Shown: in pieces, positions 3,470-63,401 of the stretch
Layout: every line of letters begins with the position of its first letter
Position numbering within the stretch: the first letter of the stretch is position 1
DNA from: Clostridia bacterium
Lineage (GTDB): Bacteria; Bacillota; DSM-521; Neomoorellales; JACIYF01
Direction of reading: 5' to 3'
Assembly: GCA_014360065.1 (NCBI GenBank)
Contig: JACIYF010000001.1
Coordinates: forward strand, 9,176-73,175
DNA: 64,000 nucleotides
Position numbers and translations under genes: made by a program
Notes under the pieces: model-generated
Seen by the model: only the letters and a program-made list of their open reading frames with translations
Told to the model about the DNA's origin: nothing
The model's database searches: none

Positions 3470-3824
3470 AGATCCTCACCCTTACCCGCTTCCTACCCCA
3501 CTCAAGCGCCTCCGCCCGGCTGGGCATGAACACATCTATCCTCCTGCCCCTAATCAGCCTCCCGGTATCGAGCGCCGTCCCCCACCCGTAGCCTTCTACC
3601 CACAAGCGCGTCCCCAGCGGTATCACCTTGGGATCCACCGCCACCGTGCCCACCTCGGGCCACGTCCCGGTGGCCGTGCGATTCCCGGTATGGGTGTAGG
3701 CGGTTGCCCACATGACAAGCTCCCGGTACTCCGGGGCCTCCCGCCTCGCCTGGTTGAACCGTTTACCCTGATAGACCAGGGCGCCTCTCGTATCGTCGGT
3801 AACCCGCCAGCAGCTACTGGCCAA
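3456..3824 (-). CDS. 3D-domain (MltA/YuiC-like, peptidoglycan-active fold) protein
   Basis: ATAYTHTGNRTATGTWPEVGTVAVDPKVIPLGTRLWVEGYG...DTG..IRGRRIDVF matches the 3D-domain pattern. A paralog is at 54475..54978. Confidence 0.7.
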   Translation of the reverse strand: MASSCWRVTDDTRGALVYQGKRFNQARREAPEYRELVMWATAYTHTGNRTATGTWPEVGTVAVDPKVIPLGTRLWVEGYGWGTALDTGRLIRGRRIDVFMPSRAEALEWGRKRVRVRIYAGR

Positions 3825-5340: not shown

Positions 5341-6268
5341 TCTCCTTTCTGCGCCGACGGTGTTCCGCTACAATCGCCTCAAGCTCCGGGTCTGTCTTTA
5401 GGGTGGATGACGCCGGCGCGTCCCTTGATCTGGCCGCCTGGCGGCGTTCTTCGTATTCGCATACCTGTTGGAGAGTGAAAAGCCGCTGTTTCCGCCAGCT
5501 GTCTAGGATTCCGGCCACATAGCGCAGGTTGAACCTGCTTGCCGTTACCGCTCTCCTGAGCGCTTCGCGGGTAAGTTCAGGGCCGTGGACGGCCTCCAAC
5601 GAGGCTATTTCTTCAGTCTCCATTGGCGACAACAGGCGGCCGAATTCCTCCTCGAAGGTTCTTAACAAGTCAGGACTTGGCGGCGGCTGCGGCGGCGGGA
5701 TCTCTTCTCCCGTTACGCTGGTGCTTATAGATCCCGCCGCCGCCGATTCTGTAACGTTTGGGTTTAAGATCTCAGTTTGCGAATCCGAAGGTGAAGGTGA
5801 AGGTGAAGGTGAAGGTGAAGGTACGGAATCCTCGGGATTCCTCGGGAGTCCTGCGGGTTCCTCGGGATTCCTCGGGTTTCCTAAGGAATCCTCGGGAATT
5901 TCATCGGGGGGAGCAGGGCACTTTGGCTTGCAGCGAAAGAGCTTACCCTTATTAATATACGTCTGATATCCTAACCACTTCTGCAGCGATGGTATGCACC
6001 AGTAAGGCTTTCCTTCAACCTCGTAGATCTTAATCAATCCGGCCTCATGGTACATATACAGCACCTGCTCTATATAATCCGGCCCAAACGGATACGCGGG
6101 GAACACGGCCAGCTTTATCTCGGTCGGCGCGAACTTGGCCCGTCCCCAGTCGTCAAGCGCCGTGAGGAACCACGGCCACAGAGCAGCCGCTAAAGGATCT
6201 TTCGCCGCTATCTTTGCAAGTTGCTCATCGGTGCTTATATCGCTTGTAATAAATCGCTTGCGTGCCAA
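5309..6268 (-). CDS. phage replisome organizer, DnaD/DnaB_2-like C-terminal domain
   Basis: 319 aa. C-terminal RYVAGILDSWRKQ DnaD-type block and a central PSPSPS / NPR repeat linker. It lies immediately upstream of dnaB, with a 32-nt overlap. Confidence 0.65.
   Translation of the reverse strand: MARKRFITSDISTDEQLAKIAAKDPLAAALWPWFLTALDDWGRAKFAPTEIKLAVFPAYPFGPDYIEQVLYMYHEAGLIKIYEVEGKPYWCIPSLQKWLGYQTYINKGKLFRCKPKCPAPPDEIPEDSLGNPRNPEEPAGLPRNPEDSVPSPSPSPSPSPSDSQTEILNPNVTESAAAGSISTSVTGEEIPPPQPPPSPDLLRTFEEEFGRLLSPMETEEIASLEAVHGPELTREALRRAVTASRFNLRYVAGILDSWRKQRLFTLQQVCEYEERRQAARSRDAPASSTLKTDPELEAIVAEHRRRRKEIAGNGARATP
5787..5900. repeat. tandem repeats inside the replisome-organizer gene: (GAAGGT)x6, then ~7 copies of a ~10-nt unit WTCCTCGGG
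   Basis: Read directly: gaaggt x6 at 5787..5822, then attcctcggg-type units to ~5900. An AT-rich patch ttattaatatacgtctgatatc follows at ~5950. Confidence 0.9.
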
Positions 6269-6792: not shown

Positions 6793-7107
6793 TTACCTCG
6801 CTATCACTAAGCTGCTATGCGGCTCTTTGATCTGCCACAAATGGAAGCAGTTTTTGTGGACATTCACATATTCCGTCTTAGGCGGCAGTAGCATCGCCAT
6901 GGTTACATTGTCAGGCACCAGCAGATACCGGGCTTCCTTTATCTCGTCCCAGGTCGGATACCGGTCCGGGTGGCTGATGCTGAGGTGCCAGCCGGCATCC
7001 GATCGGCCCACGATCACCGTACACCCGCCCAGCCGGAAAGCCCGGGCACCAGGCTCAAGCTGTGCTTGAAGCCAGGCGGGAATGGGGACCTCGGTTAAAC
7101 TATTCAT
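6793..7107 (-). CDS. conserved phage protein of unknown function (paralog of 56381..56695)
   Basis: 104 aa. Shares LEPGA.A...G.CTVIVGRS..AGWHLSISHP.RYPTW.EI..ARY...PD.VTMAM.LPPK.EYVN..KNCFHL with the prophage B copy. Confidence 0.6.
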   Translation of the reverse strand: MNSLTEVPIPAWLQAQLEPGARAFRLGGCTVIVGRSDAGWHLSISHPDRYPTWDEIKEARYLLVPDNVTMAMLLPPKTEYVNVHKNCFHLWQIKEPHSSLVIAR

Positions 7108-12347: not shown

Positions 12348-12602
12348 TTAAGCACCATCCGTGCCGGTGGGCTGGGTTTCCCCTCGCTGAACTTTAGCGC
12401 ACAGCAAATCTTCTAACGGAATGTTGAATTCCTGATAGACTTTCAGCGCAACACGTTTAGAAAGGCCATGTTGTCCGTGGATAATCATAGAATAATTGCT
12501 TTTTGAAATCCCTAGTCTCTTGGCCATTTCCGTCTTGCTGATTTGAAGCTGATTCCTGATTTGCTCTAACTTATGCATCCGGTTCACCGCCTCTGAACCC
12601 AT
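12348..12602 (-). CDS. Cro-like XRE HTH regulator
   Basis: QISKTEMAKRLGISKSNYSMIIHG HTH. It diverges from the cI-like gene. The start may be 12602 (leaderless) or 12578. Confidence 0.65.
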   Translation of the reverse strand: MGSEAVNRMHKLEQIRNQLQISKTEMAKRLGISKSNYSMIIHGQHGLSKRVALKVYQEFNIPLEDLLCAKVQRGETQPTGTDGA

Positions 12603-12705
12603 TATAGTTTAGCCAATCTGAACCTGTCAAGGGGTAAATTTATTTTTCCTGAACCAAATTGTAATTTCAGGTTACCTGAACTATACTTGAAAGTGGGTGG
12701 TAATA
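12603..12705. promoter_or_regulatory. divergent cro/cI control region with CTGAAC-type operator repeats
   Basis: Perfect palindrome TTCAGGTtACCTGAA at 12666..12680, plus half-sites CTGAACC at 12618..12624 and 12649..12655. The interval is AT-rich and lies between divergent HTH genes. Confidence 0.5.
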
Positions 12706-13516: not shown

Positions 13517-14686
13517 ATGGGTTTTAAAGAGGACATGCAGAAGCTGTCGGCGCAGATCGCCGAGCGGAAAAACCATGTTGTCAATGAAGAAATGGGCAAG
13601 CAGGTCCTGGTTATGCCTTTTATCCAAGCTTTAGGCTTTGATGTCTTTAATCCTCTCGAAGTCAGGCCCGAGTACATAGCTGATTTCGGCAAAAAGAAAG
13701 GCGAGAAGGTTGACTACGCCATATTCAAGGATGGAACGCCGGTAATGTTCATAGAAGCAAAGTCCGTTACGGAAAATCTGGAAAACCATGATGCCCAGCT
13801 TGCCCGCTATTTTAATGCCACTCCTGAAGTCAGGATTGCTGTTCTTACTAACGGCGTAGTCTACAAGTTCTTTACCGACCTAAATTCAAACAACATTATG
13901 GATCAGTCGCCTTTTCTGACTCTTGATATAACTAACTTAACCACTTCGGATATAGAGATATTGGCGAATTTCAGAAAGGACCGATTCGAAACAGAATCGC
14001 TAGTCAGATATGCCGAAGAACTAATATACACGTCCAATCTAAATGCAAAACTAAAGGACCTATTTAAGAATCCTCCGGACGATTTCATACGCTTTCTGAT
14101 AAGAGACTTTAGTGATACAAGGGTAACCAGTAATGTCATCGAGCGTTTCCGACCTATCGTAAAGAAGTCAATTTCTCATGCCATACTTGAGATAGTCAGC
14201 CAAGGGCTTTTCCCACAGGAGGTTGCATCCAACGAGGAAGTGGCTCAAACTTCGGATCAAGTAGAAGAAAAAACTACCGAGGACAAAGAGCCAGAAGAAA
14301 CCGACGCAGGCAGAAAAATAATTACCAGCGAAAAAGAAAGAGCTAGTTTTGATCTAATCAAGAGCATCCTCGAAAAGCATGGCCTAGATACGTCTAGCCT
14401 AAATTCCAAAGACACAGTGAATTACTACGGCATCTTTACCAAGAACATCTTTCATTGGTTTATTAGGCTCAATCTGGATAGCGCGAACGAGCACATTATT
14501 ACCAGGCTGCCTCTGGAAACGGCCCAATCTTTAGCGCCTGGGTTTAAAGTGGAACCGGCTCCTAAAGGTATTGGAGAAAGTAGGGTGTACATAAACTCCT
14601 ATCATGATCTGGTAAAGCTGGAGGAGCTTATCGTAACAGCCTTTAAAGCAGTTATGCCAGAACAAAGCAAAGAAACCCAGCCATAA
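13517..14686 (+). CDS. HsdR_N-type (type I restriction enzyme R N-terminal-like) PD-(D/E)XK nuclease-domain protein
   Basis: 389 aa. N-terminal KVDYAIF...PVMFIEAKS (D...EAK) with a QLARY block. Acidic linker and an uncharacterized C-terminal half. Visibly AT-richer than its neighbours. Confidence 0.55.
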   Translation: MGFKEDMQKLSAQIAERKNHVVNEEMGKQVLVMPFIQALGFDVFNPLEVRPEYIADFGKKKGEKVDYAIFKDGTPVMFIEAKSVTENLENHDAQLARYFNATPEVRIAVLTNGVVYKFFTDLNSNNIMDQSPFLTLDITNLTTSDIEILANFRKDRFETESLVRYAEELIYTSNLNAKLKDLFKNPPDDFIRFLIRDFSDTRVTSNVIERFRPIVKKSISHAILEIVSQGLFPQEVASNEEVAQTSDQVEEKTTEDKEPEETDAGRKIITSEKERASFDLIKSILEKHGLDTSSLNSKDTVNYYGIFTKNIFHWFIRLNLDSANEHIITRLPLETAQSLAPGFKVEPAPKGIGESRVYINSYHDLVKLEELIVTAFKAVMPEQSKETQP

Positions 14687-14707: not shown

Positions 14708-15874
14708 ATGCCCGGCCACATCAGACCAGTTAAGGGACAGGAGAACGTCTGGAGAGTTGTTGTCGAAGCCGGCATCGATCCAGGAACCGGAAAGCGCCGC
14801 CGGGTAGTGAGGATAGTCAGAGGCCGGCTTGCGGAGGCGCAGGCTCTCCTGGGCCGGCTTCTTCAGCAGTACGAAGAACAGCACCTTGAGCCCACCAAGC
14901 TGACGGTCGGTGAGTGGGTACGCATTTGGCTTGACGACTACAAAAAGGTAGAGCTGAGGCCAACCACGTGGGAACTCTATGACGGCTACGCCCGAAATCA
15001 CCTTATTCCCGCCCTGGGCGCGACCCGCCTCGCAGATCTTCGCACGTCCGACATCCAGAAAGCGTATGCTCAGATGTACCAGTCCGGTGTCTCGGCAAGG
15101 AGCATCCGCATGGTCCAGCAGGTACTCCACGGCGCCCTTGAGCAGGCCGTAGCCGAGCGAAAAATCCCCTACAACCCATCGGACAAAGTCCGCCTGCCAA
15201 CTTACGAACCTCAAAAGCGCCGGGCTCTCACACAAGAGGAAGAGGCGGCTTTTATCCAGGCATGCTTTTCGGACCGCCTGGGGCCTGCCTTTCTGGTGGC
15301 ATTAGGTGCAGGTTTGCGGCGCGGAGAGGTTCTGGCCCTTCGGTGGAGCGACATAGACTGGGAGAATGGTATCCTCCGCGTGGAGCGGGGCCTGACGCAC
15401 ACCACGGAAGCCGGTACGACGATCCAGGGCCCCAAGACCGCGCACTCCAAGCGGCCTGTGCCCGTGCCGGGCACAGTACTGCAGGTACTTGCCTACCACC
15501 GGGACAGGATGCAAGCCGAAGAGAACTACCGAGCAAACGGCCTAGTGTTTGTCACCAGAAAACGGACGCCTATCATGCCGCGCAATTTCAACCGCAAGTT
15601 CTACCAGCTCCGTGCTAAGGCCGGCATCCCGGAAGATGTTACCCTCCACGGTCTGCGGCATACCTTCGCCACCCGGCTTTTGGAACTCGGCGAGGATACC
15701 CACGTTATCCAGTCCATGATGGGGCATACCCGCTCCAGCATTACCCAGGAATACGCTCATGTCACGATGAGGCTCATGCGGGAGGCCGCCCAAAAGATGG
15801 ACAAGCACCTCTCGGGCACAAATCGGGCACAAAAAAACGGCCCCGGAGAGGGGCCGGAGCCACAAAGCCCTTGA
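14708..15874 (+). CDS. int: tyrosine recombinase / phage integrase
   Basis: 388 aa. LGAGLRRGE (Arg I), HGLRHTFAT (HxxR) and GHTRSSITQEYAH (catalytic Tyr region). Confidence 0.9.
   Translation: MPGHIRPVKGQENVWRVVVEAGIDPGTGKRRRVVRIVRGRLAEAQALLGRLLQQYEEQHLEPTKLTVGEWVRIWLDDYKKVELRPTTWELYDGYARNHLIPALGATRLADLRTSDIQKAYAQMYQSGVSARSIRMVQQVLHGALEQAVAERKIPYNPSDKVRLPTYEPQKRRALTQEEEAAFIQACFSDRLGPAFLVALGAGLRRGEVLALRWSDIDWENGILRVERGLTHTTEAGTTIQGPKTAHSKRPVPVPGTVLQVLAYHRDRMQAEENYRANGLVFVTRKRTPIMPRNFNRKFYQLRAKAGIPEDVTLHGLRHTFATRLLELGEDTHVIQSMMGHTRSSITQEYAHVTMRLMREAAQKMDKHLSGTNRAQKNGPGEGPEPQSP
15806..15831 (+). repeat. CACCTC-N2-GGGCACAAATCGGGCACA motif, copy 1 (candidate integrase arm-type site)
   Basis: Lies inside the 3' end of int. 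A near-identical copy is at 16045..16068, on the other side of the tRNA-Val core. Confidence 0.5.
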
Positions 15875-15880
15875 TTTTCT

Positions 15881-15930
15881 TGGTGGGCGATAGTAGATTC
15901 GAACTACTGACCCCCTGCTTGTAAGGCAGG
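15881..15930 (-). other. 3' 50 nt of tRNA-Val(UAC): att core copy, not a functional tRNA
   Basis: The minus strand reads CCTGC-CTTACAA-GCAGG GGGTC AGTAG-TTCGAAT-CTACT ATCGCCC A CCA. The upstream sequence cannot supply the GGGCGAT acceptor strand or a D-arm. Confidence 0.7.
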
Positions 15931-16044: not shown

Positions 16045-16068
16045 CACCTCAGGCACAAATCGGGCACA
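16045..16068 (+). repeat. CACCTC-N-GGCACAAATCGGGCACA motif, copy 2
   Basis: Direct repeat of 15806..15831, located ~115 nt to the right of the core fragment. Confidence 0.5.
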
Positions 16069-16130
16069 CAGACACGATCCCGCCGCGAAGACCCCACCAA
16101 AAATTTTTTTAGATCTTTTTCAAAAACCCC

Positions 16131-16158
16131 TTGACGGCTACGTGTATACGTATATAAT
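16131..16158 (+). promoter_or_regulatory. sigma-70/SigA-type promoter of the accessory operon
   Basis: TTGACG (16131..16136), 16-nt spacer, TATAAT (16153..16158). It lies ~50 nt upstream of the first RBS. Confidence 0.55.
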
Positions 16159-16207
16159 TATAGTAGAACGAAGGTTGAGCCCCGGTTGGGCGGAAAGGAG
16201 AAAGGTA

Positions 16208-16855
16208 ATGATGCAGGAGAGAGTAAACCAGCTAATCGATAAGTGGCAGATCATTTTATTAACCGATGGACGCTTGATGGTCCAGGGCAAGCCTGGGCCC
16301 AAGACTATGGCCGAACTCAAGGCCCTCAAAGAAGAAATCAAGGCCGAGCTTCTGCGCAGGGCTGAGGAGCAAAAGGCCCGGCGCGAGGCTGCTGAGGCCG
16401 AGCGGAAGGCTAGGGAAGAGGCCGAGCGGAAAGACATTCTTGAAGGCCGCCGCCCGATAACCGTTTACTGGTATGATGGCGAGGTCCTGAGCGCCTATAT
16501 GGCCGGCGGAATAGCCGCTGGGTTGCTAGAAGAACTTGGCCTCGCCAAGTACATCGAGGGCTGGGGTTGGAAAGTTAACAAAGAAGTAGTGGAAGCTCTC
16601 GGCACCGAATTCACCTATCAGCAGGCCTATGAATTTGCCCGGCCCGCTATCGAGGCCAAGGCTGAGGCTAAGGCCAAAGCCGAGGCCGTGCAGCAGGCCA
16701 AGTTCCAAGAGGCCAAGGCGACCGGCAGGCCGGTGGTTCTGGCCCATTGGATGGAGCCCTGCAATGATCCGCGTGAGGAATGCGATCTGGATAGCGTGAC
16801 CCAATTGGCTATGCCAGATGGCAGCATCCAAATACAACGAACACATACTTGGTGA
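16208..16855 (+). CDS. hypothetical protein with central charged coiled-coil
   Basis: Start ATGATG after GGAGAAAGG. 215 aa with an EEQKARREAAEAERKAREEAERK segment. No family recognised. Confidence 0.55.
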   Translation: MMQERVNQLIDKWQIILLTDGRLMVQGKPGPKTMAELKALKEEIKAELLRRAEEQKARREAAEAERKAREEAERKDILEGRRPITVYWYDGEVLSAYMAGGIAAGLLEELGLAKYIEGWGWKVNKEVVEALGTEFTYQQAYEFARPAIEAKAEAKAKAEAVQQAKFQEAKATGRPVVLAHWMEPCNDPREECDLDSVTQLAMPDGSIQIQRTHTW

Positions 16856-17043
16856 TTGTGGAGGCTGGCGGGGGTGCAACTCCCCCCTCGGTTCCGGAGA
16901 CACCGCCACACCGTGCGGGGTGCCGCACAGCCCCCACGGTGGCGCGTGAGCGGTGGGGCCACCAGGTGGAGGGGTGCGGCTCAAAGCCTGGTCGCGGGCC
17001 AGTGCCCGGGGCCTCCAGTACATAACCTTTAGGAGGGATTGGC
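16856..17043 (+). other. GC-rich, hairpin-dense intra-operon spacer
   Basis: Hairpins read directly: GGGGG-tgcaact-CCCCC, and CGCCAC...GTGCGG-ggtg-CCGCAC...GTGGCG (nested). There is also long-range GGAGG/CCTCC pairing. Confidence 0.3.
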
Positions 17044-17316
17044 ATGGAGACATGGAAGCTCGAAGTCCGGCGCGCACCGGACGGGTATCGGGGAGATCTC
17101 GACTGCATCGAAATCGTCACCGATAACAATGTCCAAGTTGTTCCTCGACTCTCTCAGGAGCAAACCTGGGATGGGCACGAGGAAGAAACGGTTGTTTGGA
17201 ACGGCCGTCCGGTCGCCATACTGAAAACCTGGTATGGCGACGGTGGCCGGAGCTACCGGGTAGCAGCACAGGAAATTGAACCGCTGCCTGGGACGGAAAT
17301 TGTGTGGATGGACTGA
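17044..17316 (+). CDS. hypothetical protein
   Basis: 90 aa. AGGAGGG RBS 6 nt upstream. Confidence 0.5.
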   Translation: METWKLEVRRAPDGYRGDLDCIEIVTDNNVQVVPRLSQEQTWDGHEEETVVWNGRPVAILKTWYGDGGRSYRVAAQEIEPLPGTEIVWMD

Positions 17317-17330
17317 AGGGAGGTGAGAAG

Positions 17331-17675
17331 ATGGGCTGCGCAATTTGTGGCAAAGAATTAAACAAAAACGCCACGGCGATCAATTTCGCCGTGGCCAGCA
17401 ACGGATGGGTCTGCCCCGAGTGCGCCCGCGTGCTGCACCCGTTAAGGTGTAGCATTTGCGGGGCCGATCTCGGAGGGGTAACTGAAGACCCCTCCGAGGT
17501 TATCGGGCCAGGCGCGCTCCTGCGCCTGGCCCAGGGAGACCGGTCGGCGCGGCCTGGTGTCGCGTGCGACCGGTGCTGGGATCTGGTGTTTTTTGCTGAA
17601 TTGCTCGGGCGTATACCCGAGCTGATTCAGCAGAAAGATCTAGTCCTCCAGCGTATTTTGAAGCTGGAGGACTAA
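17331..17675 (+). CDS. hypothetical multi-CxxC zinc-ribbon protein
   Basis: Start ATG after GGGAGGTGAG. The protein contains CAICG, CPEC, CSICG and CDRC. Confidence 0.5.
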   Translation: MGCAICGKELNKNATAINFAVASNGWVCPECARVLHPLRCSICGADLGGVTEDPSEVIGPGALLRLAQGDRSARPGVACDRCWDLVFFAELLGRIPELIQQKDLVLQRILKLED

Positions 17676-17722
17676 GGCCATCACCCCGATGACGGCCCGG
17701 CCTGAGGGGAAAGGAGGAAACA

Positions 17723-18007
17723 ATGATGCGGTTCAACTGCAGGCGGGAAAATACTCCCGCCGAGACTGCGCGGACTCTTGTCTGCGCAGGATGCTGGCAG
17801 GATAGGCCAGAGTGCCCTGGCCGAACGCCAGCCTGTGAGTTCCGGTTCAAGGAGCTACAGCGGGCAGGCTGGAAAGTTCGCTCGCGGGACGTCGTTGCCC
17901 ATGCTGGGGCAAGCGCTCGCGGGCACTGGGCAACTTTCCGTGTAGTTATTGTCACCATTACTTCCCCGGACGGGGAAGAGTATACGTTCCACATTTATCC
18001 CCGATGA
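17723..18007 (+). CDS. hypothetical Cys-rich protein
   Basis: 94 aa. AAGGAGG RBS. The protein contains CAGCW..CPG..C. Confidence 0.5.
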   Translation: MMRFNCRRENTPAETARTLVCAGCWQDRPECPGRTPACEFRFKELQRAGWKVRSRDVVAHAGASARGHWATFRVVIVTITSPDGEEYTFHIYPR

Positions 18008-18429
18008 CGATCCAGCCCGAGGGGAAGGAGGTATGCAAATTGCTCAGGATAGCGCGCGGGTTGTATGACGATGATGCCGATCTGTCCGTCGGCATCATCA
18101 GGATCGAGAAAGAGATCCAACTGCATAGGACTGCCGAGAGGAGTCTAGTCAGGCTTCTCCCTGGAGATTTGTTCATTTGGGTCGATGATGTCACGGAGTA
18201 TGAATACATCCAGGGGTACTTGGTTCGACAAGGCCCCGATGGGTGCAGATTTATCTACTGCGAATTCGACAAGTACGGAGCGAATTATTCCGTACTTGAC
18301 CCAGCCGAGGCCGAGCAGAGCATGCAAGCCCTCCTACAGGCGTATATGGAGTTCGAGAAAGAACAAGACGAACTAAACAAGGATCCGACTTATGACCCGC
18401 CTAGGTACCTAGTGTCTGGAAGGAGGTGA
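18004..18429 (+). CDS. hypothetical protein
   Basis: 141 aa. ATGA start/stop overlap with the upstream gene. Confidence 0.5.
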   Translation: MTIQPEGKEVCKLLRIARGLYDDDADLSVGIIRIEKEIQLHRTAERSLVRLLPGDLFIWVDDVTEYEYIQGYLVRQGPDGCRFIYCEFDKYGANYSVLDPAEAEQSMQALLQAYMEFEKEQDELNKDPTYDPPRYLVSGRR

Positions 18430-18433
18430 TACC

Positions 18434-18922
18434 ATGCCGGCAAAGACCATTTATATCCGCGAATCCGACCTTGAAATCTTCGACCGCGCCGAAAAGCTCG
18501 GTACCGCCGAGAGCCTTTCCGCCGCCATCGCCGAGGCGTTGCGGCGGTACGTGGCGGCGGAGGAGGCGCGGCTGAAGGGAATGGAAGAGATTACCCTGAC
18601 CGTTGGCACCTGGGGTGGCGGTCAGGGCGAACCCGACACCAAGAAGGTCCGGTTCACCGGGCGGCTCCTGGCCGATGGAAGAACCTACGCCGACCGGGAC
18701 ACTCGGGGAGTGGACTGGGCCATTTACCAGACGAAGAAGGGTCAGATCTTACTCTACCGGGAAACCTGGTCCAGGTGGCAGGGCGAGGAATCTGCTGCCG
18801 TCTACCGCGTCTACCCCAGCCTGGGCGAGCTGGCCGATGCCAACCCGGACTTGCCTGGATCGATTTTGGAGCGGGCTAGGGAAGCGCTGGGGCTAAAAAC
18901 TGTCGAGGAATTGGACGTTTAG
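18434..18922 (+). CDS. RHH-like N-terminus plus EXLDI-type C-terminus protein (tentative)
   Basis: 162 aa. N-terminal KTIYIRESDLEIFDRAEKLG..SLSAAIAEALRRYV resembles a ribbon-helix-helix. The protein ends in VEELDV, resembling the EXLDI family motif as I recall it. Confidence 0.5.
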   Translation: MPAKTIYIRESDLEIFDRAEKLGTAESLSAAIAEALRRYVAAEEARLKGMEEITLTVGTWGGGQGEPDTKKVRFTGRLLADGRTYADRDTRGVDWAIYQTKKGQILLYRETWSRWQGEESAAVYRVYPSLGELADANPDLPGSILERAREALGLKTVEELDV

Positions 18923-18935
18923 AAGGAGGCGGGAG

Positions 18936-18970
18936 AAAGCCGGGCACGAAAGCCCGGCTTTTTTATTTTT
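18936..18970 (+). terminator. rho-independent terminator of the accessory operon
   Basis: GCCGGGC-acgaaa-GCCCGGC stem, followed by TTTTTTATTTTT. Confidence 0.7.
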
Positions 18971-18975
18971 CCCGG

Positions 18976-19047
18976 AGCCGCCGGGGAGATTTGAACCCCC
19001 AACCTGCCGATTACAAGTCGGCGGCTCTACCGTTGAGCTACGGCGGC
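18976..19047 (-). tRNA. tRNA-Thr (anticodon UGU)
   Basis: 72-nt cloverleaf folded by hand. Acceptor GCCGCCG/CGGCGGC, D arm GCTC-AACGGTA-GAGC, anticodon arm GCCGA-CTTGTAA-TCGGC, variable AGGTT, T arm GGGGG-TTCAAAT-CTCCC. CCA is not encoded. Confidence 0.85.
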
Positions 19048-19373
19048 TCAGTTCTAATCACATGCCATTCTGCCTGCCCCGTCAATCTCCGCAGTGCCTC
19101 TGCCTGCTCTTCGGCTATCTTTCTATCCCACCATGCCTTTGAGACTACTCGATAAGGACCGGAGGCTACCCGGATACTGCCCTCATACTCTTCCGGCTTG
19201 GTGGAACCTAAAAGAGCCACAGCCAGCACCTCATAACCCATGGCTTCACCCAAGGCGCGGAATTTTTCCTCGGCCTCTCCCGGTGTAACCGCTCGCACTC
19301 TGGTTTGGATATACCAGCTCTCACGCTGGCAGGAAGGATAGAAAGGGCAATCAAGCTCGACCGGGCAGGACAT
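19038..19373 (-). CDS. hypothetical protein downstream of endolysin
   Basis: Start ATG 19373 after GGAGGG. 111 aa. The last 3 codons plus the stop overlap the 5' acceptor strand of tRNA-Thr. Confidence 0.45.
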   Translation of the reverse strand: MSCPVELDCPFYPSCQRESWYIQTRVRAVTPGEAEEKFRALGEAMGYEVLAVALLGSTKPEEYEGSIRVASGPYRVVSKAWWDRKIAEEQAEALRRLTGQAEWHVIRTEPP

Positions 19374-19384
19374 GTAAGTCCCTC

Positions 19385-20659
19385 CTAACCCTTCGGCTGG
19401 AGCCACACCGGGTACCAGCGGCCATTACCGACGCAGATATACAGTCCCCGGCCCCTGTACCCGTCTCCGAACCACAGCTCGCCGGCTACGTTTTGCATCT
19501 TCGCATTCGGGACAAGTACCACTCCAGCCTTTGGCCTGTCGGCATCCGTAGCAGGAGCAGGAGTTCCAGTATTGTCTCCCGGCTTAGGGGCGGAACCATC
19601 TTCTTCCGTAGCCATGAGATCGCTGAGATAATCCCGGACTATGCTTTTCCCGTAGTCCGGGTTGGGTGCCCATTTATCTTTGCCGCCGAGCGCTTCTACA
19701 GTTGTTGCCGTGCCCTTAATCCTCTCGAAGTGTCTCGGGTCAGGGGTATTCTTCAGTGGATAACCAGGAGCCCCAGCATAGAGAGCCAAATGATCGCGGT
19801 GGGCCTTGACCCCGGTCAGCCAGTCGGGAAATCTTGCGTGATCTTCCCTCGCATCCCCCTTGGGCTTGGTGACTTTGAGGCCGCACGGGTTGTGCATGTC
19901 GGGAGTCACCGCGCCGCCGAACTTCCCAAAACCCGTTTCCTTGGCTGCTTGGGCATAGGCCACTTCGGGCCGGACAGGAGAAGCTATGCTCCAGTACAGA
20001 TTGGCAAGGTTTATGAACTCCTCTGTGGCCCCGCGCTTTTTCGCCCACGCTTTGGCCTGCCCAACAGTAGCCTGCGGGCTGCCGAGGATGGGTGTCCCTA
20101 CTGGTGCCTGGACGAACGGTATTCCGGCCCACCTGAGAATGCCCTTGGCATCGGCGATGGCGCACTTCTCGCGGAAGTCGCCGGACTTCAACAGCTCGCA
20201 TTCTTCCTTGTTGGTGTAAAACCCATGCTCAATAAGCACGGCAGGCATGTTGGTTTCCCGGAGGACGTAAAAGTTCTCTTCCTTAACCCCTCTGTCCTTG
20301 AGGCCGAGAAGGGGAATGCTTTCGGCCCGGATAGCTTCCGCTATTTTCTCCGCCTGCCCGCCGCGCTTCCAGATGTAGATCTCCCAGCCCCGGACATCAT
20401 TCCAGGTGGTGCCATAGGCATTGGCGTGAATCGAAACGAACACGTCAGCCTTGGCCTCGTTTGCTATCCTGCGCCGCTCGGCCAAGGACACATCGGCATC
20501 AGTAGGAGCAGTAAGCACCACCTTCACGCCGGCCAGCTCAAGGTATTTCTTCAGCCGCTGGGCCACATCCCGGTTGAACTCGTACTCCCGGAGCGTCCCG
20601 TCAAAGCTCCTTTTGCCTGCCGTCTCAATGCCGTGGCCAGCATCTATGCACACCAACAT
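19385..20659 (-). CDS. endolysin: N-acetylmuramoyl-L-alanine amidase (Amidase_3-type) with glucosaminidase-like domain
   Basis: MLVCIDAGHG...VFVSIHANA amidase_3 blocks. Central AYAQAAKETGFGKFGG glucosaminidase-like block. Adjacent to the holin gene. Confidence 0.85.
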   Translation of the reverse strand: MLVCIDAGHGIETAGKRSFDGTLREYEFNRDVAQRLKKYLELAGVKVVLTAPTDADVSLAERRRIANEAKADVFVSIHANAYGTTWNDVRGWEIYIWKRGGQAEKIAEAIRAESIPLLGLKDRGVKEENFYVLRETNMPAVLIEHGFYTNKEECELLKSGDFREKCAIADAKGILRWAGIPFVQAPVGTPILGSPQATVGQAKAWAKKRGATEEFINLANLYWSIASPVRPEVAYAQAAKETGFGKFGGAVTPDMHNPCGLKVTKPKGDAREDHARFPDWLTGVKAHRDHLALYAGAPGYPLKNTPDPRHFERIKGTATTVEALGGKDKWAPNPDYGKSIVRDYLSDLMATEEDGSAPKPGDNTGTPAPATDADRPKAGVVLVPNAKMQNVAGELWFGDGYRGRGLYICVGNGRWYPVWLQPKG

Positions 20660-54474: not shown

Positions 54475-54978
54475 CTATGGCTGACCGCCTCCTGTTTCTC
54501 CTTTCCCCCCGTGCCAGACCACCACCCTCACCCTCTTCCTTCCCCATTCTCTCGCCTCCGCCCGGCTGGGGAGAAACATATCGATCCTCCTGCCCTTGAT
54601 CAAATACCCGGTATCCTCCGCCCTCCCCGGGCCGTACCCTTCCACCCATAACCTCGATCCCAGCGGAATTACCCGGGGATCCACCGCCACGGTCCCGCAC
54701 CTCGGCCATGTGCCGGTCGCCGTCCAGTTCCCCGTGTAGCTGTACGCGGTAGCTATCGCCTCCATCTCCCAGCGCTCGCCCGCACCTGGGGCAGGCTCGC
54801 GCCCTTCTTTCCCCTGCTCAGCTTCCCCGCCCCTGCTTGCCTGTCCGACTTCTGCCCTGCCCTCTGGAACCATCTTTCCGCGCTCATGCAGGTTCAGCGG
54901 GCGCGGGTTCGCCAGCGCTATCCACGCCATCACCGCCGCCGCCAGAAGTACCGCCAGAACCGCCCGCCAGACCCGCAT
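54475..54978 (-). CDS. 3D-domain protein with N-terminal membrane/signal segment
   Basis: Start MRVWRAVLAVLLAAAVMAWIALA. The C-terminal 3D block is nearly colinear with 3456..3824. Confidence 0.7.
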   Translation of the reverse strand: MRVWRAVLAVLLAAAVMAWIALANPRPLNLHERGKMVPEGRAEVGQASRGGEAEQGKEGREPAPGAGERWEMEAIATAYSYTGNWTATGTWPRCGTVAVDPRVIPLGSRLWVEGYGPGRAEDTGYLIKGRRIDMFLPSRAEAREWGRKRVRVVVWHGGKGETGGGQP

Positions 54979-55483: not shown

Positions 55484-56384
55484 CTCTTTCGCCCCTTTCC
55501 GCCCACTCTGCAAGCGACGCATAAGCCCTCGGGACCCTTCCGGCAGGTCTGCGCCTCCGCTCCTCTTCTTCCTCGAGCCGCCTTATCACCCAGCTCAAAA
55601 TAGCCCGGTAATCCGACTTGTACCGCTTTCCGTGGGCACCCTTGTACGCGTCCAGGATCTCGATGCACCGCCTTACACGGTTCTCGTTTCCAAGCCGCGC
55701 CAGAAGCGACTCATACTCCGCCGGGGTCATAGACACATACTCCGCATACCTGACCGGCTCATTCTCGCTGGGGGGGGACAAAGGGGGGGGTGCATCTGCA
55801 TTTGCATTTGCATCTACATCTGCATCTGCTTGTTTGCCATTGCCTTCCCCAAAGCCTTCCCCAAAGCCTTTGCCATTGCCTTCCCCAAAGCCTTTGCCAA
55901 AGCCTTTGCCAAAGCCTTCGGGATCGCCTTCCCCGGAAGAACCTAACGCCCAACTTTCCAGCGCCTGGGCCAACTGCTCCAGATACGGCTTTCCCAGCTC
56001 CCTCACCATCTCCGCCAGGACCTTGAACAGCCCGCTCCGGGGGAGCTCAGCCAGCACCTTGATTGCGCCCTCAGCCCGATTGCCGTTATCGATGGGATTA
56101 TGCCGGAGGTAATTCACGATGAGCACCAGATCGGTCTTGGGATCGACCTTGACGAAATCATCCTCGACCAGCCTCGCAAACGCCTTGGCAAAGCGCTTCC
56201 TCTCCCATCCCAGATCAGCGCATGCATAGAGCTCCGGCAGGACGTAACACCCAAGCACGTTATTATGAGGAGAAGTCAGCAGGTAGAGCGCGAGCAGCTT
56301 GGCATCATCGCTCCACCCCCTTACCTTCTCATCCATCCAGAACCTGGACTTGATGTGTACGTACCTGCCCTCCCCGGTCATCAC
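55032..56384 (-). CDS. phage replisome organizer (C-terminal ~160 codons run in an alternate frame over the loader gene)
   Basis: N-terminal YVHIKSRFWMDEKV..LLALYLLTSPH organizer-like domain, a GFGK/GNGK and DADVDANANA repeat linker, and a YRAILSWVIRRL DnaD-like block. After that the translation becomes Gly/Ala/Arg-rich. Confidence 0.55.
   Translation of the reverse strand: MMTGEGRYVHIKSRFWMDEKVRGWSDDAKLLALYLLTSPHNNVLGCYVLPELYACADLGWERKRFAKAFARLVEDDFVKVDPKTDLVLIVNYLRHNPIDNGNRAEGAIKVLAELPRSGLFKVLAEMVRELGKPYLEQLAQALESWALGSSGEGDPEGFGKGFGKGFGEGNGKGFGEGFGEGNGKQADADVDANANADAPPPLSPPSENEPVRYAEYVSMTPAEYESLLARLGNENRVRRCIEILDAYKGAHGKRYKSDYRAILSWVIRRLEEEEERRRRPAGRVPRAYASLAEWAERGERDDQERGGKAGGVGGGQFSGHAGKGSEPDRRGMAFGAQRKGCGSPAGGGGAEEGAGGGSALPDRGGNSPGGGGDQAVAAPAPGGADQGKVPALPRWDHNREEAGGEAGVRVCVPVQLQDGDGAARAGDTGDPRVDAGRAASEGGGRGPPGG
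55791..55922. repeat. tandem repeats inside the replisome-organizer gene: (TGCATY)x~6, then 12-nt unit CCAAAGCCTTYS x~7
   Basis: Read directly. Preceded by G7 and G8 homopolymers at 55771..55790. Confidence 0.9.
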
Positions 56385-56695
56385 CGCTCCGCCACCCCTC
56401 CGCGCTCCACATGCACCTCGAAGAGGTGGAAGCAGTTTTTATCGACATTGACGTACTCTCTCTTCGGCGGCAAAAACATCGCCATCGTGACCTCATCGGG
56501 GATGAACCTGTACCGCGCATCCCGGATTTCGCTCCACGTGGGATACCTGGTGGGGTGGCTGATGCTGAGGTGCCACCCCGCCCCCTCCGACCGCCCCACG
56601 ATAACCGTGCACTCCCCGAACAGATACGCCTCCGCGCCCGGCTCGAGCATTTTCTGCACATCCGGGGGAATCCTGAGCCTCCTCCATCCCCTCAT
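56381..56695 (-). CDS. conserved phage protein of unknown function (paralog of 6793..7107)
   Basis: Starting at ATG 56695 (ATGA overlap) gives 104 aa, the same length as the prophage A copy. Confidence 0.6.
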   Translation of the reverse strand: MRGWRRLRIPPDVQKMLEPGAEAYLFGECTVIVGRSEGAGWHLSISHPTRYPTWSEIRDARYRFIPDEVTMAMFLPPKREYVNVDKNCFHLFEVHVERGGVAER

Positions 56696-61850: not shown

Positions 61851-62093
61851 CTAGCCCGCCTCTTCATCAGGCGAACCAGCGGCATACGGATCCATCAGCG
61901 CGGTCACGGGCACTTCAAGCGCCCCTGCAACCTTTCTCAGCGTCCGCATCAGGGGCGATACCTGCCCATGCTCCCAGTAGAACAACGTCGCCTTCGATAC
62001 TCCCGCTGCCCTCGCCAGTTCCGCTAACGACAGCCCACGCCGGGTGCGCCAGTACCGAAGGGCCATATTCCCTCGCTGGGTCATTTCGGCCAT
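61851..62093 (-). CDS. Cro-like XRE HTH regulator
   Basis: Start MAEM after GGGAGGGAG. RRGLSLAELARAAGVSKATLFYWEHG. Confidence 0.65.
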   Translation of the reverse strand: MAEMTQRGNMALRYWRTRRGLSLAELARAAGVSKATLFYWEHGQVSPLMRTLRKVAGALEVPVTALMDPYAAGSPDEEAG

Positions 62094-62281
62094 GTCCCGC
62101 TCCCTCCCCTCATGCTGCCATGATACCAACACATTATAATCATGTCAAGACCAATTCACGGAAATTCAATAAATCGCCTCCTGCATGTTCACTTAATTGA
62201 TATAAGATCCTCTAGACTTATCCATTCTGCCTGCAATAGAATCAATGTATTGATATGGGAATCGAGGAGGAGAATTTGAAA
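62094..62281. promoter_or_regulatory. divergent cro/cI control region with ATTGAT-type operators
   Basis: Palindrome ATCAATgtATTGAT at 62241..62254. ATTGATAT also occurs at 62196..62203 and 62249..62256. TAGAAT -10-like hexamer at 62236..62241. Confidence 0.45.
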
Positions 62282-62833
62282 ATGTCGATCGGAAAAAAGA
62301 TCCGCAAGCTGCGCGAAGCTCAAGGGTACACCATAGAAACCCTCGCCCAGGCTGCAGGGGTAGCCAAAGGGACGGTGGCCCGGCTGGAGATGGGCGCCGG
62401 GACCCCGCGCATCGACACTTTAGAAGTTATCGCCAAAACCTTGGGGACTACACTGGAAGATCTTATCGCTGCCTCAGATATCGATGAAACAGACCCTGCT
62501 GAGGCCGAGATTCAGGGCATCGCCGACATCATCCGCCGTCTCCGGCCCGAACAGCGCCGCGCCCTGCGGGAATTCCTCCTTACCATGTTCGAAATCCCCA
62601 AGGGCCGTATTTTCGACCTTATCCCTAAAGGGGAGGCCAATCTTGCGGACGCTCTGGTTCGGGCTGCCGATATCGCTTACCGCGCAAACCTCTCTGACAG
62701 CACGCGCAAAGAGCTTTTTGACGCCACCGTCAAATATTACGGCAGCACCGAAGAGGCAGCGCCATTTGCCGCCCACGATCCCGAACCTAAGCCGAACCTG
62801 GAGAAAAGAGCAGGGCATGCCGATAACAATTAG
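62282..62833 (+). CDS. cI-like XRE-family repressor
   Basis: Start MSIGKK after GAGGAGG. IRKLREAQGYTIETLAQAAGVAKGTVARLE. Confidence 0.7.
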   Translation: MSIGKKIRKLREAQGYTIETLAQAAGVAKGTVARLEMGAGTPRIDTLEVIAKTLGTTLEDLIAASDIDETDPAEAEIQGIADIIRRLRPEQRRALREFLLTMFEIPKGRIFDLIPKGEANLADALVRAADIAYRANLSDSTRKELFDATVKYYGSTEEAAPFAAHDPEPKPNLEKRAGHADNN

Positions 62834-62873: not shown

Positions 62874-63401
62874 ATGAGCCCGCCAATTCCAACTCTGGAG
62901 GATTTGCTATCTCTTGTTGCCGGTCTTGGGTGCCGGGTAGAGCAGCGCCCAAGCCTCGCTGCCAGCCTCGGCTTTTCCGGCATTACCACCGGGCGCACCA
63001 TCATCATCGATTCTTCTCTTTCCGCGCGCGAGAAAAAAAGCGTGCTGGCAGAAGAAATCGGGCACATCCTCCACGCCCCGCCCGAAAGCCATGCTGTTTT
63101 TTACTCGCCCCGCTTCCGCCGCCTTGACTTCGATCGCCGGTCCCGCCTCGCCTACCGGGTGGGTAGAGACGAGACCCGCGCCCGCCGCTGGGCCGCTGAA
63201 TTCCTGGTCCCGCAATCCGCCTTTCTCGAGTTCGCGCAGACCGGACCTCACTCCCTGCCCGACTGGTGCGATTACTTCGAGGTATCTGAATGGCTGATGT
63301 TGGTCCGCTTCCAATTGACCGAGATCCGCTCTTATCCTGCTTCGCATGCGAATCGATCTCTGAATAACAAACAATTGCAGCGAGGTGAACCGCTATGGTG
63401 A
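62874..63401 (+). CDS. ImmA/IrrE-family (DUF955) metallopeptidase-like protein
   Basis: LAEEIGHILH block, colinear with 13064..13504. Confidence 0.6.
   Translation: MSPPIPTLEDLLSLVAGLGCRVEQRPSLAASLGFSGITTGRTIIIDSSLSAREKKSVLAEEIGHILHAPPESHAVFYSPRFRRLDFDRRSRLAYRVGRDETRARRWAAEFLVPQSAFLEFAQTGPHSLPDWCDYFEVSEWLMLVRFQLTEIRSYPASHANRSLNNKQLQRGEPLW

Follow-up and report, generated by a model that had tools for sequence, protein, structure and literature searches.

What holds together a set of small, mostly unannotated genes at the end of a prophage, and what could such genes be doing there? The question is raised by a 64-kb stretch of the Clostridia bacterium contig JACIYF010000001.1 (hereafter the window, meaning the whole stretch that was analysed), which is made up of two related tandem prophages, apparently both inserted at tRNA-Val. 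At the end of the right prophage, between a tRNA-Val remnant and a tRNA-Thr gene, a near-consensus promoter, six plus-strand genes (g1 to g6) and a strong terminator form a cassette that is convergent with the lysis and late genes. The initial annotation of this DNA took the unit for a lysogenic-conversion or defence cassette, an interpretation that is partly supported by the present analysis. It seems to us, with a probability of roughly 0.6, that the cassette is a self-regulated accessory operon of the right prophage, in which g6 acts as the autorepressor and the layout resembles that of anti-CRISPR (acr) and anti-CRISPR-associated (aca) genes.

The evidence for this starts with a 10-bp palindrome, TATACGTATA, in the cassette promoter. 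It was found as a motif common to this promoter and to the regions upstream of canonical EXLDI genes (the family to which g6 is assigned below), it is present in a single copy in the window, and no other site there matches it at one mismatch. Outside the window its distribution follows that of g6-type genes: 1) the window and 22 loci fetched with g6 (341 kb) contain 12 exact copies against 0.33 expected (Poisson P about 1e-15), 11 of them at the promoter of a g6-type operon; 2) a further 80 metagenome loci (399 kb) contain 56 exact copies against 0.38 expected (P about 1e-99), all 56 lying 33-455 nucleotides (nt) upstream of the gene; 3) the controls, phage loci fetched with g1 and 485 kb in total, contain none, with 0.46 expected. 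The palindrome is located in or beside the -35 and -10 elements in the window and in L002, L007, L009, L015, L017 and L029 (locus labels begin with L). In phage-type loci (L002, L007, L009, L015, L016 and L017) it stands ahead of the first cargo gene and not directly before the regulator gene.

Three loci (L021, L023 and L024) encode proteins of 227-247 amino acids (aa) that have in common with g6 only the ribbon-helix-helix (RHH)-like N-terminus, joined to other C-terminal parts. As TATACGTATA, exact or with one mismatch, is kept about 40 nt upstream of these genes lacking an EXLDI part, the operator goes with the N-terminal domain rather than with the EXLDI domain. Position 5 of the N-terminal strand and the operator also appear to vary together, the exact palindrome being found in 56 of the 89 loci with T at this position and in 2 of the 14 with N or Q, which have altered central bases (Fisher P=0.0009), although this is suggestive only, shared ancestry and short contigs being confounders.

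Because the palindrome in the promoter tracks g6-type genes, g6 most likely represses the operon that encodes it, and repression is to be preferred over activation since the palindrome sits within the core promoter. A g6 dimer would bind TATACGTATA and block RNA polymerase, and would either hold the whole operon at a set level or release it if the EXLDI domain senses a signal.

Judged by profile comparison, g6 is a full-length member of the EXLDI family. It scores 40.4 bits against the NCBIfam model TIGR04342 (EXLDI protein; curated cutoff 32, E=3.1e-10), with residues 51-162 covering profile positions 2-124 of 124, and it aligns with the family along its whole length. The protein ends in VEELDV, with V for I; its close phage-type relatives (P0002-P0005 and P0012) also end in LDV, and the canonical members in the alignment all end in LDI. 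The most conserved part of the family is the N-terminus, where K-T-I-Y-[IV] is followed by LSAAIAxALRRYV and where K4, I6 and Y7 are invariant. This pattern, together with predicted helices and a weak profile match, suggests a ribbon-helix-helix fold: hhalign places this N-terminus in register with the CopG RHH over 40 columns with 35% identity (E=0.002), and the AlphaFold2 monomer has helices at residues 10-22 and 28-47, residues 1-9, which hold the conserved strand-like motif, having no regular structure. The C-terminal beta-rich domain is modelled with a predicted local distance difference test score (pLDDT) of about 90, and a Foldseek search with the g6 structure gave no match in the PDB (best E=0.03, template modelling score 0.2). 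The RHH-like N-terminus and EXLDI-like C-terminus had been recognised from the start; what had been overlooked is the likely role of g6 as a regulator, and with it the operator in the promoter.

Canonical members of the family occupy a different position. Their genes come first in an operon that also encodes an ABC ATPase and an ABC-2 permease (L025, L026, L028 and L029), a gene order that is a matter of context and lies outside the definition of the TIGR04342 model. That context is absent at g6, as no transporter is encoded in the window and g6 stands at the end of its phage cassette. Standing directly behind the palindrome and at the head of an ABC operon, the canonical genes look like regulators from their sequence context. 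They share with g6 the alignment over the whole length, the RHH-like N-terminus, the ExLD[IV] tail and the promoter palindrome, and differ from it in their size (168-174 aa, some 25 residues being inserted), in the distance of the operator (30-60 nt upstream) and in being the first gene of the operon, whereas members of the phage subfamily are the last. Literature searches on the function of the EXLDI family and on the operator sequence returned nothing relevant.

Comparison with related phages separates what is kept in the cassette from what is exchanged. The closest relative (L002/L003) is a phage that lies beside another tRNA remnant and whose lysis genes differ. Between L002 and the window the promoter and 5' untranslated region are 90% identical over 123 nt, of which 84 nt (16099-16182) are 100% identical, and the block formed by g6, the terminator and tRNA-Thr is 87% identical over 633 nt. 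Between these blocks L002/L003 has three genes, whose products are of 102, 110 and 190-227 aa; the 110-aa protein alone is related to the product of a cassette gene (g2, 43%). Because L002 keeps both end blocks but has other genes between them, the promoter with its operator at one end and the block of g6, terminator and tRNA-Thr at the other make up a conserved frame with exchangeable content. At least 10 phage loci have a g6-type gene in last position, after 1-3 unrelated small genes and beside the lysis module, and in the phage subfamily up to 2.3 kb of cargo separates the operator from the regulator.

The cargo itself rarely recurs. Nearly all of the 47 cargo open reading frames (ORFs) listed from about 20 related loci are singletons. 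Among the approximately 20 loci with a full-length g6 relative, g1 is found with g6 in three distinct ones only (the window, L005/L006 and L017), g2 accompanies g6 in a single relative (L002/L003), and g3, g4 and g5 occur in none of the other g6 loci. As g2 to g6 are in turn absent from 38 g1-type loci, the idea that the six genes form a conserved set, which was to be checked by their co-occurrence in other genomes, is rejected; only the promoter and g6 travel together. In scans of 35 of the 47 related cargo ORFs, the only matches in Pfam and PHROGs were isolated ones to single proteins, mostly to DNA-binding folds.

The proposed organisation is close to one that has been experimentally shown for anti-CRISPR loci, where an autorepressor encoded in the operon acts on a strong promoter with a palindromic operator (bioRxiv 10.1101/787200; bioRxiv 10.64898/2026.07.27.740549). 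AcrIIA1 of Listeria phages consists of two domains, the N-terminal one of which acts on a conserved palindrome to repress the acr promoter (bioRxiv 10.1101/787200), and Aca14 of Pasteurella multocida is described in a preprint of July 2026 as the first RHH-type Aca, with an AT-rich inverted repeat that overlaps the -10 box (bioRxiv 10.64898/2026.07.27.740549). The cassette has the same ingredients, namely a strong promoter, a palindromic operator at the -35 and -10 elements, a variable cargo of small and mostly unannotated genes, and a putative autorepressor inside the operon, the regulator and promoter being conserved while the cargo is swapped. Both an in-operon regulator and an inverted repeat in the promoter are thus found here, the link of the repeat with g6-type genes being a statistical one. 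Like AcrIIA1, g6 has two domains, a probable DNA-binding N-terminal domain and a second, C-terminal part. Unlike Aca1-13, which are helix-turn-helix (HTH) repressors, it is RHH-like. As far as regulation goes, the cassette would then, by analogy, work like an acr-aca operon.

The likeness to Aca14 extends to the RHH class of a regulator in aca position, to an inverted repeat overlapping the -10 box, to the GTATA/TATAC half-sites of both operators and to the beta-strands (KTITVR in Aca14, KTIYIR in g6). The operators as a whole are different (TGTATATG-N4-CATATACA for Aca14, TATACGTATA for g6), and the two proteins differ in that Aca14 has 67 aa and an N-terminal helix, and g6 has 162 aa and a C-terminal EXLDI domain. 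Membership of g6 in the Aca14 family is rejected on sequence, since a comparison with the Aca14 sequence taken from the supplement (the only Aca compared) gave E=0.26 with hhalign and no alignment with BLASTP.

According to the model of a self-repressed operon, the five genes inside the frame would be exchangeable cargo, that is, small, mostly acidic, orphan or rare proteins that, to go by the acr-aca-like layout, may act on the host or on host immunity. The layout agrees no less with an (acr-aca-like) anti-defence operon than with a defence cassette. A bolder version, possible in our view but doubtful, would have the RHH-EXLDI proteins as an unrecognised Aca-like family that regulates counter-defence operons in Firmicutes phages and is marked by the fixed operator TATACGTATA, the orphan cargo of the lysis-side exchange hotspot, including g1 to g5, as new anti-defence genes, and g1 as a new fold with a Cys2-His site. 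What appears to be new here is the putative operator-repressor pair for the EXLDI family and the frame-plus-cargo organisation in phages. The family, so far represented by a curated model, gains a testable role as a DNA-binding autorepressor with a defined 10-bp operator, and its phage branch closes small operons of fast-exchanged, unannotated genes. If the cargo is anti-defence, the operator and regulator would make it easy to trace such genes, by association, in phages of anaerobic Firmicutes, which the known HTH-type Aca markers may not cover; if it is not, the prophage nevertheless gives a clear example of a constant frame around content that can be swapped.

Several observations weigh against the model. 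The RHH part of the g6 monomer is modelled with low confidence (pLDDT 57-69), and Pfam RHH models match neither g6 nor any of 37 family members, for which reason we infer this fold rather than assign it. Some close phage-type relatives (L075-L081 and L004, for example) have no recognisable operator, many of these contigs being short. In Actinobacteria the same regulator family heads ABC-exporter operons, so the family identity of g6 reveals nothing about the function of the cargo, and in scans with Pfam, PHROGs, NCBIfam and PADLOC the cargo genes bear no resemblance to known defence or anti-defence proteins. Lastly, g1 may be an ordinary phage gene that chanced into the cassette, because its relatives usually lack g6 (38 g1-type viral contigs carry none of g2 to g6 within 7 kb) and lie near integrase, SNF2-type helicase, PAPS-reductase-like and ParB-like genes, neighbours whose identities were assigned by reading the cluster sequences. 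Even so, each of the three other explanations that we considered is less well supported than a self-repressed operon.

The first of these is that the genes are ordinary phage early or host-takeover genes without a role in the lysogen, placed after the phage attachment site (attP) and controlled by a housekeeping phage regulator. This would agree with the 38 viral contigs in which g1 relatives neighbour integrase, early or DNA-modification genes, with L005 and L009, where the g6-type gene is followed on the same strand by XRE-type regulators and early genes, and with the strength of the cassette promoter, which equals that of the two early promoters. Early genes would hardly be expected, though, to form a unit with its own operator-promoter and its own closing regulator, as is the case in at least 10 phages, nor to be closed off by a terminator, as happens after g6 in both the window and L002. 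The replacement of their content between phages sharing the frame is likewise not usual for core early functions, and we regard this explanation as unlikely.

The second explanation is that of the initial annotation, namely a moron expressed from the lysogen that protects the host against other phages by defence or superinfection exclusion. A moron, in the sense of Hendrix and colleagues, is an additional gene located among conserved phage genes and provided with a promoter and a terminator of its own. In this respect the earlier description of an autonomous unit that ends the prophage and runs against the late genes was accurate: the cassette has its own promoter and terminator and lies between the lysis module and att, its presence or absence varies between relatives, and L002/L003 has the same frame with other cargo, which fits a moron or an accessory hotspot. 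It departs from a moron in having what seems to be a built-in dedicated repressor, several cargo genes and a phage-like base composition (G+C fraction 0.57-0.59).

As for a defensive role, the site by the lysis genes, the autonomous signals, the orientation against the late genes and the differences in cargo between relatives, as in defence hotspots, would all be in keeping with it, and so would the promoter. Control of the cassette by the phage cI repressor was considered and rejected, as the switch-region repeats, picked by eye (GGTTCAG on the left, ATCAAT..ATTGAT on the right), are absent from the cassette promoter as judged by eye, without a scan; because these motifs are absent, the promoter could be active in the lysogen. 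The proteins themselves tell against defence. None of the six matches PADLOC-DB v2 at E<=1 and none of the 35 related cargo proteins does so at E<=0.001; Pfam, PHROGs and NCBIfam reveal no nuclease, ATPase, NADase or other effector domain in the cassette; and no membrane-spanning or signal sequences were noticed on reading the proteins by eye, no predictor having been run. Small, mostly acidic orphan cargo is unlike most known defence systems, and the six genes are not co-inherited. The claim of a defence cassette thus finds no support, and such a function seems quite unlikely.

The last explanation, a toxin-antitoxin-like pair of g5 and the RHH protein g6 with passenger genes upstream, is very improbable: RHH antitoxins of type II systems do autoregulate through promoter palindromes, and the sole g5 relative is also followed, 4 nt on, by an RHH protein (RHH_1, 64 aa, of another family), but g5 is acidic (pI, or isoelectric point, 4.6 in its 141-aa reading), no toxin family is found in g1 to g5 with Pfam, PHROGs, NCBIfam or PADLOC, g6 matches VapB_antitoxin at E=0.92 only, most g6 relatives lack g5, and canonical family members head ABC-transporter operons.

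The coordinates of the cassette and of its surroundings are collected in Table 1.

Table 1. Features of the cassette and of the two prophages, in window coordinates
Feature	Coordinates	Strand	Remarks
Left prophage	1 to ~15900		Terminal part: early genes (sliding clamp, DnaB, SbcC-like), endonuclease gene, integrase
Tyrosine integrase	14708-15874		Belongs to the left prophage, not to the cassette-bearing one
tRNA-Val(TAC) 3' fragment	~15882-15930	-	Hybrid att site between the tandem prophages; left boundary of the cassette-bearing prophage
Promoter TTGACG-16-TATAAT	16131-16158	+	Sigma-70 type; 11/12 consensus match
Palindrome TATACGTATA	16145-16154		10 bp; within the promoter spacer and extending into the -10 box (its first two bases); putative g6 operator
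g1	16208-16855	+	215 aa; two long helices, small alpha/beta domain, C-terminal three-stranded beta domain
g1-g2 spacer	16856-17043		188 nt, ~70% G+C; nothing recognisable
g2	17044-17316	+	90 aa, pI 4.5; 43%-identical homologue in the L002/L003 cassette
g3	17331-17675	+	114 aa; four CxxC pairs (double zinc-ribbon-like) and C-terminal helix; orphan
Linker repeat, copy 1	17684-17717	+	CCCCGATGACGGCCCGGCCTGAGGGGAAAGGAGG; holds the ribosome-binding site of g4
g4	17723-18007	+	94 aa, pI 9.3, 5 Cys; strong ribosome-binding site; least certain of the six genes
Linker repeat, copy 2	17999-18031	+	Gives the g4 stop codon and the g5 ribosome-binding site
g5	18040-18429	+	129 aa, acidic; probable start TTG 18040, GGAGG 8 nt upstream
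g6	18434-18922	+	162 aa; RHH-like N-terminal domain (~4-47) and C-terminal beta-rich EXLDI domain
Intrinsic terminator	18933-18964	+	13-bp stem, T-run to ~18974; kept with g6 in L002
tRNA-Thr(TGT)	18974-19047	-	Phage-borne; within the 633-nt block common to L002
cI-like gene	62255-62833		Right prophage
ImmA-like gene	62874-63401		Right prophage
Integrase	starts ~63395		Cassette-bearing prophage; extends past the window end

Most of what the initial annotation had said of the anatomy of the cassette holds, with some changes of detail. The promoter is one of three sites in the 64 kb that match the consensus at 11/12 or better (0.16 expected), the others being the divergent early promoters of the two prophages, at 62148(-) and 12630(-). 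The strong terminator is present, with its span at 18933-18964 and not 18936-18970. All six plus-strand ORFs are present, and genes called independently on a Logan contig of identical sequence have the same coordinates. Good ribosome-binding sites precede g1, g2, g3, g4 and g6, while the 141-aa reading of g5 (pI 4.6), from ATG 18004, has no Shine-Dalgarno sequence. With GGAGG upstream of TTG 18040, the sole homologue starting at the equivalent codon and ATG 18004 lacking such a sequence, TTG 18040 is most likely the start of g5. The protein is then of 129 aa as in the homologue, and the only overlap behind the supposed ATGA coupling (g4/g5, at 18004) is for the same reasons probably not real.

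Because relatives exist for g1, g2, g5 and g6, and because the ratio of nonsynonymous to synonymous substitution rates is low for g6 (0.09), g5 (0.13) and g2 (0.31), as under purifying selection, these four can be taken as real genes. Codon scores are weak for g3 (0 bits) and g4 (-14 bits), the annotated frame being nevertheless the best of six in both. Four of the five cargo proteins of the window are acidic (pI 4.5-5.4). None of the six cassette proteins has an enzymatic domain recognised by Pfam, PHROGs, NCBIfam or PADLOC, in line with what had been noted at the outset, and g1 to g5 have no recognised domain at all in the first three of these beyond a sub-threshold match of g3 to the zinc ribbon DZR_2 (E=0.002). 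PDB sequence searches with g1 to g6 gave nothing significant, and DNA and protein searches of cultured phages gave only similarity to tRNA-Thr and one partial g1 match, in a Clostridium phage.

Among the cargo genes, g1 deserves to be flagged, as its family numbers over 100 proteins and its structure, although predicted with very high confidence, has no neighbour among known folds. Its 111 homologues, from uncultured Firmicutes phages, are without any Pfam domain. In the family alignment C185, C192 and H213 are invariant; they lie in a C-terminal module that is also found fused to other N-terminal parts. The AlphaFold2 model has a pLDDT of 97.2 and no Foldseek match in the PDB (best E=1.1) or in BFVD (best E=0.086), making g1, as modelled, a candidate new fold that is possibly metal-binding. 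The structure predictions called for earlier were thus made for g1 and g6, and yielded a PDB neighbour for neither.

The other cargo genes are rarer still. A search of 5.8 billion protein clusters with g3 retrieved only g3 itself, and no fetched locus contains a homologue of g4. For g5, one real relative was found among 1.84 billion representatives (L068, 85% identical, and 86% at the nucleotide level), a second match, to a eukaryotic-looking repeat protein, being judged spurious. L068 is a 911-bp contig in which the g5 relative is followed, at the same 4-nt spacing, by the 64-aa RHH_1 protein instead of g6. The similarity between L068 and the window stops about 17 nt inside the regulator gene, and this break looks like a recombination joint just inside the 5' end of that gene.

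Another trace of exchange may lie in a linker of 33-34 nt, CCCCGATGACG..GAGGGGAAGGAGG, which stands ahead of g4 and of g5 in the window and ahead of a single cargo gene in L002 (1166-1200). Copy 1 is 94% identical, over a 36-nt alignment that takes in the linker, to the L002 stretch between two cargo genes. These repeats could be recombination joints for cargo exchange. An attC-like recombination structure was also considered, and was dropped because the linker forms no stable hairpin (folding z>0). In L018, another repeated GC-rich stretch with a ribosome-binding site is found ahead of each cargo gene. The spacer between g1 and g2 has no Rfam match, a folding z-score of -0.58, only ORFs that score negative, and no similarity to any fetched locus.

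The surroundings of the cassette are those of a temperate phage. In the right prophage the order is cassette, tRNA-Thr, lysis, tail, head, terminase, early genes, cI-like, ImmA-like and integrase, the lysis, late and early genes (19038 to ~62130) all being on the minus strand. Once circularised, the phage would have cI, ImmA, int and attP followed by the cassette and then by the convergent lysis genes, which places the cassette at the prophage end and gives it the orientation of the lysogeny genes. Its position between the tRNA-Val att fragment and tRNA-Thr had been correctly described, with the qualification that tRNA-Thr is the phage's own and not part of an att site, since it is kept together with g6 in L002. 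The tRNA-Val fragment is single-copy in the window, scores 25.7 bits against the Rfam tRNA model (threshold 29) and is not called by ARAGORN; no intact tRNA-Val is found within the 64-kb window. The ORF found between tRNA-Thr and the endolysin gene (19038-19406, minus strand) has no family match. As listed it has 122 aa and shares 10 nt with the tRNA gene; the independent gene call gives it 111 aa.

On either side of the att core lies a 35-nt direct repeat, 83% identical between its two copies (15811-15845 and 16048-16082), one of which falls within the integrase gene of the left prophage, at the 3' end. Tandem GGCACA / GGGCACA motifs occur in both copies, and a resembling motif is located upstream of the L002 promoter. 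The repeats may be arm-type binding sites of the integrase.

Both prophages have a cI-like gene and a tyrosine integrase gene in the same order, with the ImmA-like gene between them in the right one, and patches of their early genes (3470-3707 and 54516-54753; 6842-6996 and 56427-56581) show about 75% identity. The left switch region (12600-12700, minus strand) contains the promoter at 12630, a 12/12 consensus match, and several GGTTCAG half-sites, among which is the palindrome TTCAGGTAACCTGAA; the right one (62090-62260, minus strand) contains the promoter at 62148, an 11/12 match, with ATCAAT..ATTGAT repeats. As the repeated motifs of the two switch-region promoters are different, the prophages appear to differ in immunity specificity.

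Directly upstream of the left integrase gene, in the low-GC stretch of the window (G+C fraction ~0.48), lies a gene for a 389-aa protein with an HSDR_N domain (13517-14686, plus strand; PHROG 4225 'endonuclease', E=3e-112), which may serve the left prophage as an accessory or defence-type gene. Short tandem repeats are also present in the early-gene regions of both prophages, with a 12-nt period in the right one (55833-55940) and a 10-nt period in the left one (5824-5893).

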